From Carcharhinus amblyrhynchos (taxonomy: Eukaryota), in NCBI GenBank assembly GCA_965287045.1, contig OZ336882.1:23188001-23252000 (forward strand): a stretch of 64,000 nt of DNA, given 5' to 3'. Below are positions 13,464-64,000 of the stretch, piece by piece (the stretch's first letter is position 1; each line of letters opens with the position of its first letter). The notes beneath the pieces are model-generated. The model did no database searches. It had not been told where the DNA came from and was given only the letters and a program-made list of their open reading frames with translations. A program made the translations under genes and the position numbers.

Positions 13464-13700
<237 letters not shown>

Positions 13701-53764: not shown

Positions 53765-55110
53765 AGGTCACAGAGGTTTCCAGCATGGAAACAGGCGCTT
53801 CAGCCCAACTTATACATGCCACTCTTTTTTTTAAAGAACTAAGCTAGTTCCAATTGCCCACATTTGGCACATATCCCTCTATATCCATCTTACCCATGTA
53901 GCTGTCTAAATGCTTTTTAAAAGACAAAATTGTACCCACCTCTACTACTACCTCTGGCAGCTTGTTCCAGCCACTCACCACCCTCTGTGAAAAAATTGGC
54001 CCTCTGGACACTTTTTTATCTCTTCCCTCTCACCTTAAACCTATGCCCTCTAGTTTTAGACTCCGCTACTTTGGGAAAAGATATTGATTATCTAGCTGAT
54101 CTATGCCCCTCATTATTTTATAGACCTCTATAAGATCACCCCTCAGCCTTCTATGCTCCAGAGAAAAAAGTCCCAGTCTATCAAGCCTCTCCTCATAACT
54201 CAAACTATCAAGTCCTGGTAGCATCCTAGTAAATCTTTTTTGCACTCTTTCTAGTTTAAAAATATATTTTCTATAACAGGATGACCAGAACTGTACACAG
54301 TATTCCAAGTGTGGTGTACCAATGTCCTGTACAACTTCAACAAGATGTCCCAACTCCTGTATTCAATGTTCTGACCAATGAAACCAAGTATATTGAATGC
54401 CTTCTTCACCACTCTGTCCACCTGTGACTCCACTTTCAAGGAGCTATGAACCTGTACCCCTAGATCTCTTTGCTCTGTAGCTCTTCCCAAGTCCTGCCCT
54501 GTTTCAGTCTACCAAAATGCATCACCTTGCATTTGTCTAAATTAAACTCCATCTGCCATTCATCAGCCCACTGGCCCAATTGATCAAGATCCCGTTGCAG
54601 TCCGAGATAACCTTCTTCACTGTCCACTATACCACCAATCTTGGTGTCATCTGCAAACTTACTAACCATGCCTCCTAGATTCTCATCCAAATCATTAATA
54701 TAAGTGGCAAATAACAGTGGACCCAGCACTAATCTCTGAGGCACACCACTGGTCACAGATCTCCAGTCTGAAAAACAACGCTCTACAATCACCCTTTGGC
54801 TTCTGTTGTCAAGCCAACTTTGTATCCATTTAGCTACCTCACCCTGGATCCTGTGAGATTTAACCTTATGGAACAACCTACCATGTGGTACCTTGTCAAA
54901 GGCCTTGCTAAAATCCAGGTAGACAACATCAACTACACTGCCCTCATCTACCTTCTTGGTTACCCCCCTTCAAAAAACTCAATCAAATTTGTGAGACATG
55001 ATTTTCCACTCACAAAGCCATACTGACTGTTCCTAATCAGTCCTTACATTTCTAAATGACTGTAGATCCTGTCTCTCAAAATACCTTCCAACAACTTACC
55101 CACTGCAGAT
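53765..55110 (-). mobile_element. Relatively well preserved CR1 LINE (RT domain to 3' UTR)
   Basis: ORF 54460-54876 VTSGVPQ..LGPLLF.YINDLD..VSKFADDTKIGG..LQRDLD.L..WA..WQMEFN..KCKVMHFG; PHLEYCVQFW; LRGDLIEVYKIM. Confidence 0.92.
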
Positions 55111-56409
55111 GTCAAAGCATTGCCAAAAGCATTATCAGAAGGTACCATCAGATTTATGGCTTGGCCATTTTTGGAAAACCTGATGGAATTAAGTCTGCAG
55201 TGAAACAGTGAAGGTAAATGCCTGTGTTGCAGTGGCATGTCAAATTAGATCATATATTCAGGTCTTGGAATGAATCTTGAACCTGCGGATTTTTAACTCA
55301 GAAGCAATAATGCTACCATATGACACTTAAAATTACCTTTGGTACTGCCCTCTTTTATTTCCCATCAGGAATCTATTTAATAAGTTGGAATTCTTCAGGG
55401 AGGGAAATCTAACACCTGTACCCATTCTGGTCCATATGTGAATCTGGACATAGAGCAACATTGGTTGTCTTTAATAACCTTCTGAAAGTGGCTGAGCAAG
55501 CCACTCCAATGGGAAATTAATAATGGACAATAATTAATGGCCCTGCCCTTAATACCTACATCCCATGAATGAGTTAAACAAAAGTCCTCCACTGTAACTA
55601 GGGATAAAGCTATTTTAGATTTAGTGTTGTGCAATGAAGCAGGGTTGATCAGTAATCTCACATAGATATTATTGATCATAATACCATTGAACCCCACATT
55701 AAGTCTGAAAGTTCCAGTCCAAAACAACCACCTTAAATGTAAACAAAGACAACAACATAGGAATGAGGGGAGTGCTGGCAAAGGTTGATTGGGTAAATAC
55801 ACCAAAAAGTTTGGTGATAAATAAACAGTGGCAAACCTTTAAAGAAATAATTCAAAATGTTCAACAAAAATATATTCCATTAAAAAATAAAAATGCAATA
55901 AGGAAAATCTATCCATGGCTTACTAAAGGAGTTAGATTTTAAAAATGAGACTTGTAATCCTGCAAAAAATAGCAATAAATCTGACGATTGCGGAAGTGGT
56001 TACAAAAACCAACAACTGGCTAACAAAGGTCGATAAAAAGGAAAAAGTAGAATGAAAGTAAATTAGCCAGGAATATAAAAGCAGATTGGAAGAGCTTTCT
56101 CCAGTGAACAAAAAGAGTAGCTGGAGTAATCATTGATAACTTAGAGACAGAGATGAGAACAATTATCAAGGGGAATGGAGAAATTGTGAACAGATATTTT
56201 GTGTCTGTCTTCACAGTAGAAAGCACAAATTGCAAACCAGAAATAAAGCATTTCCAAGTGGCTAACAGGAGTGTGGAAATGAAAGTAATTAATATCAGCA
56301 GGGAAAAAAATACTAGAGAAACGTAAGGGATTAAAATACAACAAATCCCCAGGACTTGATGGCCTATATCCTAGGGTTCTAAAAGGGGTAGCTGCAGTGA
56401 TAGTGAATG

Positions 56410-58966
56410 ATGTGGAGATGCCGGCGTTGGACTGGGGTAAGCACAGTAGGAAGTCTCACAACATCGAGTTAAAGTCCAACGCGTTTATTTGGCAGCACAA
56501 GCTTTTGGAATCTTGATCCTTCATCAGGTGAGTGAGGAGCTGTGTTCACAAACAGGGCATACACAAACTCAAATTACAAGATAATGGCTGGAATGAGAGT
56601 CTTTACAAGTAATCAAGTCTTAAACGTACAGACAATGTGAGTGGAGAGAGGGCCAAGCACAGGTTTAAAAGGTGTGTATTGTCTCCAGTCAGGACAGTTA
56701 ATGAGAGTATGAAAGCCCAGGCATGTCATGGGGGTTACAGATGGTGTTACATGAACCTAAAGTCCCGGTTGAGGCCGTCCTCGTGTATGCGGAACGTAGC
56801 TATCAGTCTCTGCTCAGCGATTCTGCCTTGTCGTGTGTCGTGAAGACTGCCTTGGAGAATGCTTACGCAAAGATCAGAGGCTGAATGCCCGTGACTGCTG
56901 AAGTGGTCCCCGACTGGAAGGGAACATCTTGCCTAGTGATTATCAAGCGGTGTTCATTCAACCGTTGTCATAGCGTTTGCATGGTCTCCCCAATGTGCCA
57001 TGCTACTATGCCTCGGGGCATCCTTTCCTGCAGTGTATCAGGTGGACAACACTGGCTGAGTTGCAAAAGTATGTACTGTGTTCCTTGGGGATGGTGTTCT
57101 CACGTGAGATGATGGCATCTGGGTCGATGATCCGGCACATCTTGCAGAGGTTGCTGTGGCAGGGTTGTGTGGTGTTGTGGTCACTGTTCTCCTGAAGGCT
57201 GGGTAATTTGCTGCAGACAATGGTCTGTTTGAGGTTGTGCGTTGTTTGAAGGCAAGAAGTGGGAGGGCGGGGGTGGCCTTGGCAAGATGTTCACCTTCAT
57301 CAATGACATGTTAAAGGCTCCAGAGAAGATGTCATAGCTTCTCCGCTCTGGGGAAGTACTGGACGACGAAGGGTACTCTGCCCACCATGTCCCATGTTTG
57401 TCTTCCAAGGAGGCTGGTGCGGTTTTTCACTGTGGCACTTCGGAACTGTTGACTGATAAGTCGAGCACTATATCCTGTTCTTGTGAGGGCATCTTTCAGC
57501 GTCTGTAGGTGTCTGTTGTGATCCTCCTCATCTAAGCAGATCCTGTGTATACGAAGGGCTTGTCCATAGGGGATGGCTTCTTTAACGTGTTTAGGGTGGA
57601 AGCTGGAGAAGTGGAGCATCGTGAGGTTATCTGTAGGCTTGTGGTACAGTGAGGTTCTGAGGTGACCATCTTTGATGGAGATGCATGTGTCCGATAATGC
57701 AACCGATTCCTGAGAGTAGTCCATGGTGAGTCTGATGGTGGGCTGGAACTTGTTAATGTCATCAAATGGTTGTTTCAATGATTGTTCACCATGAGTCTGA
57801 AGGAAGAAACATGTCATCAAGGATCTAGTTTATAGCATTGGTCGAAAGACAAACCCTCCATTTACACAGGATCTGCTCAGATGAGGAGGAAGATTGCAAC
57901 AGACACATACAGAAGCTGAAAGACGCCCTCATAAGAACAGGATATGGCGTGCTACTTATCGATCAACATTCCAACATGCCACAGCGAAAAACCGCATACA
58001 CCTCCTCAGAAGACAAACATGGGACAAGGCGGACAGACTACCCTTCATCATCCAGTACTTCCTGGAGCGAAGAAGCTACGACATCTGCTCCGGAGCCTTC
58101 AACATGTCATCGATGAAGACGAACATTTTGCCAAGGCCATCCTGACACCCCCACTTTTTGCCTTCAAACAACTGCACAACCTCAAACAGACTACTGTCCA
58201 CAGCAAATTACCCAGGCTTCTGGAGAACAGTGATCACAACACCACACAACCCTGCCACAGCAACCTCTGAAAGATGTGCCGGAATATTGACATGGATGCC
58301 ATCATCTCATGTGAGAACACCATCCACCAGGTACACAGTACATACCTTGCAACTCGGCCAATGTTGTCTACCTGATAAGTTGCAGGACAGGATGTCCCGA
58401 AGCATAGTACTTTGGGGAGACCGTGCAGGCGCTATAACAACGGATGAATGAACACCGCTTGATAATCACTAGGCAGGAGTGTTCCCTTTCAGTCAGGGAA
58501 TACTTCAGCAGTCACTGGCATTTAGCCTCTGATTTTCAGGTAAGTGTTCTTCAAGGCGGTTTTCACAACATATGAAAATGCAGAGTTGGTGAGCAGAAAC
58601 TGATAGCCAAGTTCCGCACACATGAGGAGGTCTCAACCGGGATCTTGGGTTCATGTCACACAATCTGTAACCCCCACAGCTTGCCCAGGCATGTAAAATC
58701 TCACTAACTGTCCTGGCTGGAGACAATATACATCTCTTTAACCTGTGCTTAACCCTCTCTCCACTCACATTGTCTGTACTTTTAAGACTTGATTACCTGT
58801 AAAGACTCACATTCCAACCATTATGTTGTCGATTGAGTTTGCGTCTGTATATGTCCTGTTTGTGAGCGTAACTCCTCACTCACCTGAAGAAGGCGCGAGA
58901 TTCCGAAAGCTTGTGCTGTCAAATAAACCTTTGGACTTTAACCTGGTGTTGTGAGACTTCTTACTA
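56410..58966. mobile_element. Penelope-like element with two inverted arms (minus arm 56410-57820, plus arm 57850-58966) and a 12-bp TSD
   Basis: RT C-terminus LDDMF...INKFQPTIRLTMDYS...TSLYHKPTD..LHFSSFHPKHVKEAIPYGQALRIHRIC; GIY-YIG remnant SANVVYLISC...YFGET near 58353-58420; tgatagtgaatg at 56398-56409 and 58967-58978. Confidence 0.9.
58881..58915 (+). ncRNA. Minimal type I hammerhead ribozyme motif with intact core in the Penelope pseudo-LTR
   Basis: cac-CTGAAGA-a-gg(cgcgagatt)cc-GAAA-gc-TT-gtg: stem I cac/gtg and a palindromic AAGCTT in place of helix III. The sister copy at 56496-56530 (minus) has GAAA>AAAA. Confidence 0.7.
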
Positions 58967-59162
58967 TGATAGTGAATGCCATTGTTATGATTTTTCAAAA
59001 GTTCCCCAGATATTAGATCAGTCCAGCAGATTGGAAATTAGCAAATGTAATACTGACATTCAAGAAAGGACAGAGAAAACAGGAAACTGCAGGCCAGTTT
59101 GCCTGACATCAATCACAAGGAAAATCTTTGAATCTATTATTAAGCATTATATCCTCAACAAT

Positions 59163-60141
59163 CCAAAAGAGAAAATGATGGAAAGTCTCAACAGGACTGG
59201 CAGCATCTGTAAGGAGAGAAAAGAGCTGATGTTTTGAGTCCAGATAACCCTTTGTCAAAACTCAGAAGAGTTCAAAATCATGTCGACACCAGAATTCATT
59301 GAGGTGGGGACGTAAGGGTACAAAGCTGAGTTGTTCGTCTCAGAGAGGGGAAGGTTGGAGGATATGGTGAATGCACGGCAAGGGCTAGGGCTAGAAGAGT
59401 TGGAGGTCGAGAGATAGGGACTGGTGGAGGGACTGGGATGGGCAGTGATGTTGATAAGCTGTTGAAGCTTGCGTTTCTTAACAGTTGCAAGAAACAGAAA
59501 AAGTTTTTTGTTAAGACATCAAATGATGCAGAGGATGAAATGAAACTGGGGACAGGGACAGCTTTGAGGGAGAGTAAGGCTGTGTTGTCGGAGAGAGATT
59601 TGAGTGTCTTCCTGTGGTGGCGCATGGCAGTGAGTGTGGCTTTCAAGATGCAGTGAGAACAGCAGTTCAAAGAATGTTGTATATCCTGGAGATACCTGTA
59701 ATCCTAGAAGTTACATGTGGGGTGGAATTTGAGTTGAAATTTTCACATGGGGTAAGTCAGAGGTGAAGACAGTTATTGAGGAATGAAATGTGACTGTGGA
59801 TGCGAGTCTTGGTAAATACATTGTCCAACACTAAGAGAGAAATGGAAAGCAGTGAAGGTGGATAGAGGGGGAATGGACATATGGAAATCCTGTTGGAGAG
59901 AAGAGCAGTATTTCTTCAGGGTAGGCATACCTGGAAGTGGAGTGGCAGTGAGTCAAGTATTGGATAAAAGCAAATTACTGTGGATGCTGGAATCTGAAAC
60001 CAAAATACAAAATGCTGAAAAATCTCAGCAGGCCTGGCAGCATCGGTAAGGAGAGAAAAAAGCTGACGTTTTGAGTCCTGATGACTCTTTGTCAAAGCTT
60101 TTCTCTTCTGGTTTCAGATTCCAGAATCCATAGTAATTTGC
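59163..60141 (-). mobile_element. Internally deleted second-family Penelope-like element: direct terminal repeats with hammerhead motifs, N-terminal ORF remnant, short inverted end
   Basis: Repeats 59163-59263 and ~60000-60099; ORF remnant LVLDNVFTKTRIHSHISFLNNCL...QLKFHP...ILKATLTAMRHH; 60100-60143 is an inverted copy of ~59968-60010; flanks ttatatcctcaacaat and ttatatccttaacaat. Confidence 0.75.
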
Positions 60142-61681
60142 TTATATCCTTAACAATGTGCTTAGACAATCATAGCATGATTTTAAAAAGTTAACATGGT
60201 TTTAGTAAACAGAAATAGCATGTGATAAATTTATTTTAGAGTTTGTTGAAGATGTAGTAGGATAAAGGGAAAATGGTAGATGTAGTGTACTTGGATTTCC
60301 AAAAGGCATTCAATAATATGCCAGACAAAAAAAAATGCAAGGTAAAGATTCATGGATTTGGGGGTAATATATTAGTATAGATAGGGGATTGGTCAATGGA
60401 CAGGATTCAAAGAGTAGTGATAAGATGAGCATTTTTAAATTAGCAGTCTGTGACTAGTGGGATACTGCAAGGATTAGCACTGGGGCCTCAGCCAAAGACA
60501 GAGTTATGTATCTAAGTTAGCTAACAATGCAAAGCTAGATGGGAATGTAAACTGAGAGGAGGACACAAAGAAGCTGTAATAAGATCAAGACAGATTAAAT
60601 AGGCAACAAGGAGGCAGATGAAACATAATGGGGGGAAATGTGAGGTTATTCACTGGTAGCAAGAAAGACTTGAAATTTATAAATGCTGACATTCAGATGG
60701 GCTTAGTTGTATTTGTACAAGGCACACAGAAAATAAGTATGCAAGCAATTAGGAAAGCAGATGGCATGTTGGCTTTTATTGCAAGGGAACTGAAGTACAA
60801 GAGTAAGGAAGTTTTGGTAAGTCTGTACCTGCAGCATACTTAAGGAAAGATATGCTCTCATGGGAGATAGTAGAGCAAAAAGGGTGGTCTCTGGGATGAG
60901 AAGGTTCAATTAATTCTACTAATTTATTCCATATATTTATTCATCTTTCCAAAAAAAATGCTGCCTGATTTCCATATTTAGTTACAATTTTTAGGTTGCA
61001 TACTCTCATTTTTTCTTAAATGTGCCATTTTGCCTGAATATGCCTAATCAAATCCTTTCACTATTTTTCTCTGTCTTTCCATGTGCCTCCGAATTTCATT
61101 CTTCAATACTTTTCAGTCTTGATTTCCATAATTCAGAAAAGCTATACCGACAAATCACTGTAAATTTCTGTTTATTGTGGGAAAATTTGAAGAAACACAG
61201 ATAAGGCTATAGGATTAATTGAATAGATTTCAAAGAGACAGTATAAGCCTGATTGACTGAATGGTCTCACTCTTTGTTGAACGATTTCTTAATTCTCTTG
61301 TTTAGCATATTTGGCCTTGTTTTCATATCCTTTCCAATTCTCCACTTTTCCCATTTTTTGTGCAGTTTTAAAAATTTATTTTAACTTAATTAAGTTAAAC
61401 ACTTAGCTCATCTTTGCAGTTGCTTCAGTTACTCTCTGCTAATTCATTAGACATTATAGTTATTGGATGCAGTAGTACAGTGGTTGCGATCCAGAGGTCT
61501 GGGTTAATAGTCCGGAGCAGTGAGTTCAAATCTCACCATCACAAATTGTGAATTTAAATTAAATAAATCTGGAACATAAAGCTAGCTTCAGTAATTATGT
61601 CCATGAAGTTGCTGGACTGCAGCAAAAATTCAACTGTTCACTAATGCTCTTTAAAGGAAGAAGCTTGTCTTCATGATCTAT

Positions 61682-61960
61682 TTAAGTTTAAGTTTATTTG
61701 TTAGTGTCATGAGAAAGCTTACACTGACACTGCAATGAAGTTACTGTGAAAATGCTCTGGTCGCCACACTCCCTCGTTGCGTACACTGAGGGAAAATGTA
61801 GCATGGTCAATGCACTTAACCAGGTATAGTCTTTTGGACTGTGGGAGGAAATCGGAGAACCCGGAGGAAAGCCACAAAGGCAACAATCCAAGTCGGGAAT
61901 CAAGTCTGGGTTCCTGGTCTTGTGAAGCAGCAGTACTAACAACTGCACCATGGTGCCATC
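61682..61960 (-). mobile_element. HE1/V-SINE
   Basis: Same family and tail type as 7592-7890. Confidence 0.8.
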
Positions 61961-63082
61961 CATATTTGGCCTAGATGGCACTACAGACGGACAGCAATGT
62001 GTTTAACTCCTAACTGCTCTCTGAAAAGATGTAGCAAAGAAATACGAAAAGAATAAAACCAGTTAACATTACCTTACACATTGGATTTGGACAAAATAAA
62101 GGCATCCCTGCCAGGGTGACCAACACCCACAGAAACGCTTAAGGGAACTTTGGCATGGGAAACCTGTGCGGGGGGATGTGCATTGACAAACCTGTCGTAT
62201 CAGGCAGCCAGGACTGAACACGCAGGGGCGTCCTGTATATGTGCTAAAGTTAATTTCCTAAGTAATGGAAAAACAGTGTTCCAACCATGTATAACCTAGA
62301 CCACAGAGCAATTACCCCACAGGAGGAGTCCATAAAACCCAGGTTGTTTGGACACACAGCCCATTTTACCCACCCACCCATCAGTATACCTTACTAACAT
62401 CCGGGGACTTGTGCCAAAATCGAGAGAGTTACTCAGCAAACTAGTCAGTCACACTCTCAGAATTATTTGTATCAGCTACAGCTCCAGATTCCTCCATCAC
62501 CATTCCTGATGTACTATTTTACCATGACCTCATCCAGCAAAAGAGGAGATCCACCAGATAAGGTGGAACTGTGGGTATATAATAAAGAGGTGGTCTCTAT
62601 GGGAGACATTAATTGTGACTCTCGTTCCCAAGAGGTCTGATGGCATTATGTCAAGCATGGGAAAGGGAAATATGAGCTGATTGCCATCCAACATTCACCC
62701 TTAGATGATGAATGAACACTAGTTGGAAAGAGAACAAAGAGAAGCAAGTTCACAGAATCTATTCTGGCTGGGAGACTTCAGCATCTATCACTTAAGATTG
62801 GCTCAGTAGTTCTACTAATCATTGTGTTCGTCAAGTTCTGATGAACACAGCTGCCATTCTAGGTGGTGGTGAGGGCACCAACACTAACTTAACCTTGTCC
62901 TCATTTATCTGCTGCAGGTGCATCTGACCACCATAGTATTATTGGAAGTGACCACTACATAGTCCTTGTGTTTGGTGCCTTCATACTGAGGACAGCCTCC
63001 ATTGTGCTGTGTGTACAATTGTGCTAAATGGAATAGATTCAGAACAGATCTAACAGCAGTAAGCTGACCATCCTTTGGGCAC

Positions 63083-63298
63083 TGATTTGATTTATTATTG
63101 TCAAATGTATCGATGTACAATGAAAAGTTTTGTTTATTGCATGCTATACAGACAAAACATAGCGTTCATAGAGAAGGAAAGGAGAGGGTGCAAAATGTAG
63201 TGTTACAGTTATAGCTAAGGTGTAGTGAAAGATCAACTTAATATAAGGTACGTCCATTCAAAAGTCTGATGGCAGCAGGGAAGGAGCTGTTCTTGAGT
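63083..63298 (-). mobile_element. Rex1-type LINE 3' end inserted at the edge of an older LINE endonuclease remnant (~62395-63080 +)
   Basis: gatttgatttattattgtca tail and gaacagctccttccctgctgccatcagac; the upstream remnant has RGGGTVG, LAGRLQHL (LGDFN) and GSDHYIV motifs. Confidence 0.7.
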
Positions 63299-64000
63299 TC
63301 AGGGAGGTATTGGACAATATTTGAAGTCTGGCCTTGATTGAGAGCTTGGGAATCTTAAAAGAAGCCTACCAAGGAGTTAGGAAATTCTGGCATGAGTATT
63401 TTGACATTAGATGCTTTATTACAAAGTTAAGGTGTTTTTGCTGCAGTAATTAATTAACCTTACCACTCCCTCCTGCAAAGGAAAATGGACCCTTACATTG
63501 ATTACTGTTGTGTTGGTGTTGAAGCGTATGGGTTACTTTTCCAATGGGAAAAGTACTATCATACATTCAAAGCTGAAAAAAAAGTGCCTGTAGACCCTAA
63601 TGTCATGATCTAAATGCCTGTGATACCTTGAATTTAGAAAGAAAATATAGTATATGGCTTTCACATAGATAAACTCCCTGACAATTGAAGAACTCTTGGT
63701 GAAACAAGCGATCCTGACAAGTGAATTTCAGACCTGATTTTTATAGTAGGAACATCTCTTGTATAACCCAGCCTCATTATAAGGCTGCCAATAATAAAAG
63801 TAGCTGTTTTTCACCACCTTCAATTATAAGTCTTGCTGTGATAACAGCAACTCTTTAATAAGGCTTCCAAATTTGCCCTGGATGCTGAATTGTTCCTATG
63901 CATCCTCTGTTTTCTGCAGGCACTTCAGATATGTTGCAAATCTCATTATGAAACTAAAATAGTCAACTTCTAGGTGGAATGCTATAATGAGCAGTGCACT

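Follow-up and report, generated by a model that had tools for sequence, protein, structure and literature searches.

The window, i.e. the whole stretch of 64,000 nucleotides of the Carcharhinus amblyrhynchos genome analysed here, contains an insertion of a Penelope-like element (PLE) in an intron of GABRG2. The gene was recognized by an exon match with an E-value of 2e-33. The insert is in sense orientation relative to the gene and is located between the WRLYQF exon, which is upstream of the window, and the DYVVM exon at about position 13640. The features of the insert are listed below; positions are those of the window, and family coordinates are counted from +1 of the family majority unit.

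60142–60157, minus strand: upstream copy of the 16-nt TSD; the final 8 nt are shared with the inverted tail (repeat analysis and chance control)
60099–60149, plus strand: inverted 51-nt pLTR/tail piece, family 88–138, which stops at the second preferred 3' end (inverted repeat, family map)
60061–60099, minus strand: minimal type I hammerhead, copy 1, starting at family +1, the putative transcription start (sequence reading, end map)
59929–60060, minus strand: remainder of the pLTR with both preferred 3'-end sites, and leader; family 40–171 (family map, 3'-end map)
59264–59928, minus strand: frameshifted N-terminal PLE ORF remnant, codons 1–227 of 913 (local tblastn)
59262–59264, minus strand: private junction of family 853, one G, then family +1 (pattern and homologue searches)
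59224–59262, minus strand: minimal hammerhead, copy 2, also starting at +1 (sequence reading)
59160–59223, minus strand: remainder of the pLTR up to family 103, the first preferred 3' end (family map, 3'-end map)
59147–59162, minus strand: downstream copy of the TSD (repeat analysis)

Read in family coordinates, the whole insert thus consists of the inverted piece 88–138, the stretch 1–853, a single G and the stretch 1–103, all inside the TSD. The two TSD copies are identical at 15 of 16 positions, and none of up to 2000 random pairs of 45-nt windows gave such a 16-nt match. Direct pLTRs with a hammerhead, an inverted pLTR, a tail and a TSD together make up the layout of an EN+ Penelope-like insertion. 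The two hammerheads sit in a 103-nt direct repeat with 85% identity and a spacing of 837 nt. Copy 1 (minus strand, 60099–60061) reads AGCT-TTGACAA-A-GAGTC(ATCAG)GACTC-AAAA-CG-TC-AGCT, with stem I AGCU/AGCU, U3 at 60095, A8 at 60090, a 5-bp stem II, G12>A at 60072 and a predicted cut between 60065 and 60064. Copy 2, of the same type (minus strand, 59262–59224), has U3 at 59258, A8 at 59253, G12>A at 59235, G16.2>A and two new G-U pairs. Both copies have UUGACAA instead of CUGANGA and cAAAA instead of cGAAA.

The interval between the hammerheads corresponds to codons 1–227 of the 913-codon family ORF, spread over three frames. A local tblastn found neither the RT (YIDD at 559) nor the endonuclease (YIGET at 830) in it, and Pfam matched none of the six frames of the ORF remnant and none of three frames of the neighbouring element. 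An earlier note on this DNA, made from its letters alone, had described two U3-A8 hammerheads about 837 nt apart in GABRG2 sense, a flanking repeat marking one insertion, and nothing but an N-terminal Penelope ORF remnant between them. All of these statements are confirmed.

Two further observations concern the surroundings. Strong tracts of splice-acceptor type are part of the family pLTR; in the insert they occupy 59997–60050 and 59160–59213 on the minus strand, in sense in the GABRG2 intron, and the tract of copy 1 (59997–60050) has a mutation in its first AG. Adjoining the insert at 56442–58968 is another PLE family, in the form of a 2.5-kb head-to-head inverted repeat with arms 81–89% complementary. 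It carries a canonical-core hammerhead-like motif near 58871–58905 on the plus strand, with a TATA-like stretch about 30 nt before the motif, and its protein is only 25% identical to that of the U3-A8 family.

Loss of G12 abolishes hammerhead catalysis. Both hammerheads of the locus have lost this base at a CpG, as the note had pointed out, and depart there from the minimal PLE hammerhead core in its U3-A8 form. In copy 2 the additional G16.2>A disrupts the ACGU palindrome. Judged by their sequence, both are probably inactive and are predicted not to cleave. The two 103-nt repeats differ from each other at 15 of 103 sites and each differs from the family majority at 9 of 103, the sole common change being G12>A. 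This shared change reflects either two separate CpG changes or a template that was already dead. An Rfam scan of 54000–64000 gave no hammerhead at E ≤ 10 and two chance matches; the motif was therefore identified as a hammerhead by reading it directly and by comparing it with the description of minimal hammerheads given in PMC4209133. In single-strand folding the hammerhead did not form directly, which is what one would expect of a dimer-type motif.

The variant core belongs to an abundant family. Across the 2.9 Gb of the genome, the 35-nt hammerhead with U3, A8 and an intact GAAAC is matched exactly 364 times, as against 0 for the control; for a 45-nt piece that lies downstream of the hammerhead the count is 1,419. 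With a pattern left open at positions 3, 7 and 8, the first 100 of 1,955 matches comprised 93 U3-A8, three U3-G8, two C3-A8 and two C3-G8 forms. Among the 78 usable of 98 family copies, U3 was found in 70, A8 in 74 and G12 in 53; G12 was changed to A in 20 of the 78, as CpG decay predicts, and the complete core was present in 33. The majority form of the family has the minimal PLE hammerhead core in its U3-A8 form.

As a ruler we used a majority built by a script from about 190 loci and extended from fetched loci. The majority unit is 3,299 nt long and has a single uninterrupted ORF of 913 codons from the first ATG, at +172. According to its motifs (YIDD, CX4CXXC and YIGET), the majority ORF combines an RT with a C-terminal GIY-YIG endonuclease, as in EN+ Penelope-like elements; this part of the ORF is missing from the copy at our locus. 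The CX2-5CxxC linker between RT and EN defines the Neptune clade (PMC8557442); Nematis has the linker as well. The stretch CNRRRCNTC at residue 780 of the majority ORF fits this definition. The CX4CXXC linker is indicative of Neptune (or Nematis), and the family likely belongs to Neptune. One copy (L005/L188) is near full length; Pfam gave for L188 a weak RVT_1 match (E-value 0.002, 18 bits, below the cut-off of 29.6) and no GIY-YIG match in five frames.

The same genome also has a C3-G8 sister family, of which eight copies were viewed (L225, L226, L232–L237), with the same stem II and its own downstream sequence. Against this canonical relative, U3-A8 is thus a double change. The upstream flanks of the sister copies were unlike each other in all eight viewed, the search pattern having required AGCT; the sister family may share the +1 boundary.

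These results bear out the PLE derivation that the note had proposed and its prediction of a TTGACAA consensus with intact GAAAC. They do not favour its non-autonomous derivative: the U3-A8 ribozyme belongs to an autonomous-type element, because the 3.3-kb majority unit carries an RT-endonuclease ORF.

The note had further proposed an amplified retrozyme-like unit of 0.84 kb, which our searches do not support; the proposal fails by the note's own test of whether the junction is unique to this locus. A junction-spanning pattern matched once genome-wide, at the locus itself, and its reversed control also matched once. One half of the pattern matches 18 of 24 family copies and the other 42 of 71, which gives a sensitivity of 18/24 × 42/71 = 0.44 per copy, so that at least six further junction copies are unlikely (P ~0.03) and up to about five are possible. 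When DNA was searched with the junction, the locus was the sole one of the 40 scored candidates (of 1,500) to cross it. A hammerhead following position 853 is absent from all 29 homologues that best match the whole interval. In five of the 29 the layout is the same but the join is at 926, 1429, 1510, 1960 and 2177, and other samples add joins at 170, 170, 274 and 1723 and two more near 170. Nine other loci share the double-hammerhead layout with different join points. The layout recurs; the 853/+1 junction does not.

In four loci (L052, L124, L223 and L224) a position near 170, just before the ATG, is joined to +1 with differing linkers; in L223 and L224 the ~35 nt before this position are repeated as well. 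Position ~170 may be a preferred landing site that gives hammerhead units of about 170 nt, the size of animal retrozymes. We considered an amplified family of such units and rejected it: of three pattern matches, one was by chance and two had differing linkers.

Copy ends were mapped in 98 of the first 100 listed matches to the 45-nt piece, from contig C1 and part of contig C2; the piece is anchored downstream of the cut site. The sample was chosen by a 45-nt exact match, three loci give two copies each, and calls may err by a few bases. Among the 98 5' ends, 36 lie upstream of -3, 35 at -3 to +5, 17 at +6 to +33 and five at +39 or beyond. Twenty-two coincide with +1 itself, the A with which stem I begins, far above background. 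There is no excess at the ribozyme cut site: five of the 98 ends lie at +34 to +38 against 3.0 expected (P 0.19). This speaks against the spread through ribozyme-cut RNA that the note had envisaged. In the genome as a whole, the base at -1 departs from the family in 1,039 exact copies, and contigs from three organisms show 121–154 loose ends at the +1 boundary. The only TATAWAWR match in the unit, TATAAATA, starts at -30. The 3' ends fall at 100–106 (43/98) and at 133–142 (42/98) in a sample that could show ends from 100 onward only. These two clusters match the two RT start sites and the tail reported in PMC11167929.

We found 27 same-strand junctions: eight at -2 to +3 (this locus counted), one at +37 and 18 scattered inside the unit. 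Eight of the nine junctions near the hammerhead thus fall at -2 to +3 (P ~6e-12). The exception, L089 at about +37, is next to the predicted cut site and is possibly a rare copy of cleaved RNA; microhomology could explain this junction too. A cap-templated extra G at -1 was not found in a hand count of 100 listed copies (A 43, C 38, G 19), where C is twice as common as G right before +1. The extra bases between the TSD and +1 are mixed and show no cap-G signature, and for the single G at the 853/+1 junction, templating through a TCT repeat is another possible source. Several loci (L056, L105, L141, L196, L213, L217 and others) are perfect head-to-head insertions that have the AGCT palindrome at +1 as their midpoint. 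They look as if two cDNAs, both at the RNA 5' end, had annealed via this palindrome.

What the sequences show is the layout, the private junction and the preference of copies to end at +1 (5') and at ~100–106 or 133–142 (3'). We consider it quite probable that the locus is an old, one-off, defective insertion of the abundant U3-A8 PLE family and that its double-hammerhead layout arose at insertion by a template jump of the RT on uncut RNA. Both hammerheads begin at +1, where family copies stop sharply. From the DNA ends and the TATA box only, we infer that +1 is the Pol II start, i.e. the RNA 5' end; the hammerhead would therefore be nucleotides 1–39 of the RNA. Counting against a start site, the AG at +1/+2 after a pyrimidine tract resembles a splice acceptor, and the cap-templated G is missing. 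The RT, primed at about +103, would have copied to +1 and run off the RNA 5' end. It would next have resumed at +853, either on that RNA or on another RNA of the element, and reached +1 a second time. A second cDNA, which the other target strand had primed at +138, would have been linked to this product, and the inserted repeats would have decayed to their 9 of 103 differences each from the majority. The order of these steps is not one that a single locus records.

Flank-to-element contigs occur in other organisms. In organism B, two runs of a single sample each have one 84-nt contig that crosses the 853/+1 junction; its short side of 28 letters is below the 31-letter rule, which makes it a hint only. 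These contigs suggest that the insert and the junction are old. None of the four contig sets examined, of six listed, has a contig spanning the whole stretch.

It is improbable that a full pLTR-ORF-pLTR copy later lost 2.4 kb, including the RT and the endonuclease, by a DNA deletion, or that the RT skipped forward on a full tandem RNA. The family does show many internal deletions (18 of the 27 junctions), and microhomology-mediated internal deletions have been described in PLE copies (PMC3846280). However, a random deletion should not stop at +1, where eight of the nine junctions near the hammerhead do, and the upstream hammerhead begins at the identical base. The short contig of organism B, with the reservation given above, crosses the same junction. 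Post-insertion decay, which the note had named as its own alternative, is also unlikely: the downstream breakpoint is at a fixed position common to other loci.

We regard it as very improbable that +1 is a splice acceptor or a fold-back point of the AGCT palindrome and that the junction came from splicing or self-priming. The pyrimidine tract, the AG at +1/+2 and the dominance of C and A at -1 would fit, in D. virilis a PLE intron ends at the 5' end of helix I (PMC4209133), and self-priming has been invoked for palindromic inverted junctions (PMC3846280). Nevertheless, the AG is kept, with 22 ends at +1 and four at +3, a shared upstream exon is not visible in 30 unique-flank copies, the gap from the TSD to +1 is only 0–9 nt where the TSD is credible, and the TATA box is exactly at -30.

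A non-autonomous retrozyme-like unit that spreads via a ribozyme-cut, circularised RNA of 837 nt is scarcely credible and largely refuted: the junction is unique, the array of ~1.1 units with its single junction stops at +1 rather than continuing round a circle, cut-site ends are not in excess, and both hammerheads lack G12. This remains so despite two direct hammerheads 837 nt apart, a family core whose majority form is intact and, against the C3-G8 sister, compensated, the proposal that animal retrozymes are PLE derivatives with units of 51–972 bp, and the finding of retrozymes in one chondrichthyan (both in bioRxiv 2026.07.22.740005). A circular origin is disfavoured because a circle gives no reason for two stops at +1, and a ribozyme-cut template because the cut RNA would begin at +36.

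The template jump at insertion is thus our preferred reading of the locus. A broader proposal is tentative and somewhat doubtful: in these vertebrate PLEs the hammerhead may be the first 39 nt of a TATA-driven RNA, uncut RNA may be what integrates, the RT may routinely jump from the RNA 5' end to a different place on a template, and cleavage may be a self-decapping switch under selection. If this were true, a jump that landed at the RNA 3' end would recreate the partial tandem that restores the promoter, and one to an internal site, as at our locus, would yield hammerhead-flanked mini-units, the raw material of retrozymes. Many genomic copies would then record jumps, and the question of how PLE tandems form would become testable. 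On the self-decapping reading, the swap from C3-G8 to U3-A8 suggests that cleavage is kept under selection.

The locus is an ordinary decayed PLE insertion with an already described ribozyme variant, and by itself, as one decayed copy among thousands, it has little weight. The family end maps are of more interest. They give in vivo DNA support for the in vitro use of uncut RNA and of two internal RT start sites, and they suggest that PLE tandems and retrozyme precursors may stem from a 5'-end template jump. The basis of PLE tandems was left open by Schostak et al. 2008 (PMC2377424). The coincidence of the TATA box, the 5' end and the hammerhead start, together with jump-class insertions, is a modest lead; a narrow literature search of main texts found no statement of this coincidence or of such a class. 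The U3-A8 and C3-G8 sister families form a natural test of ribozyme selection in vertebrate PLEs.

The covariation U3-A8 was reported in the Cercyon PLEs of Schistosoma, with ~1,300 matches (Cervera and De la Pena 2014, PMC4209133). According to the description there, the hammerheads of our family resemble those of metazoan PLEs, including Cercyon, in having no helix III loop, a palindromic 15.2–16.2, an extra base between 9 and 10.1, a short stem I, U3-A8 in place of C3-G8 and mostly solo copies. Unlike Cercyon, our family is from a vertebrate and has a C3-G8 sister with an identical stem II in the same genome. Our narrow literature search found no paper on the U3-A8 variant in sharks; Lunse et al. 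2017 may already list it.

With animal non-LTR retrozymes, as characterized by Cervera and De la Pena 2020 (PMC7229834) and Li et al. 2026 (bioRxiv 2026.07.22.740005), the locus shares two direct type I hammerheads, PLE ancestry and a lack of coding capacity. However, retrozymes are multi-copy tandem units, mostly of 170–400 nt, that are expressed as circles, whereas the locus is a single-junction interval of 837 nt with damaged hammerheads. Two genomic criteria were examined against these sources. An amplified family with one unit and one junction was not found in the genome-wide search (sensitivity 0.44 per copy). Instead of at least two consecutive tandem units with complete hammerheads, the locus has one 837-nt unit plus 103 nt, with G12>A in both hammerheads. 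By these two criteria the locus is not a retrozyme.

Canonical EN+ PLE insertions, as described by Arkhipova et al. 2013 (PMC3846280) and Craig et al. 2021 (PMC8557442), share with the locus two direct pLTRs, an inverted pLTR, a tail (~35 nt here, 30–40 nt in known cases), a TSD, palindromic inverted junctions and a TATA box in the pLTR. The locus differs from them in that its ORF is cut at codon 227 and its downstream repeat starts at +1 without an upstream promoter.

A further comparison is with Poseidon PAc of Anolis, for which uncut RNA was the main template in vitro and hammerhead mutants had no effect on insertion (Frangieh et al. 2024, PMC11167929). A 5'-end template jump is not described for PAc in the parts of that report on which we draw. 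The PAc ORF begins inside the hammerhead, whereas the first ATG of the shark family is further downstream. PAc shows no reads at the hammerhead cut site, which is in line with our end map, and PAc, like the shark family, has two RT start sites ~35 nt apart near the RNA 5' region, which define the tail (PMC11167929).
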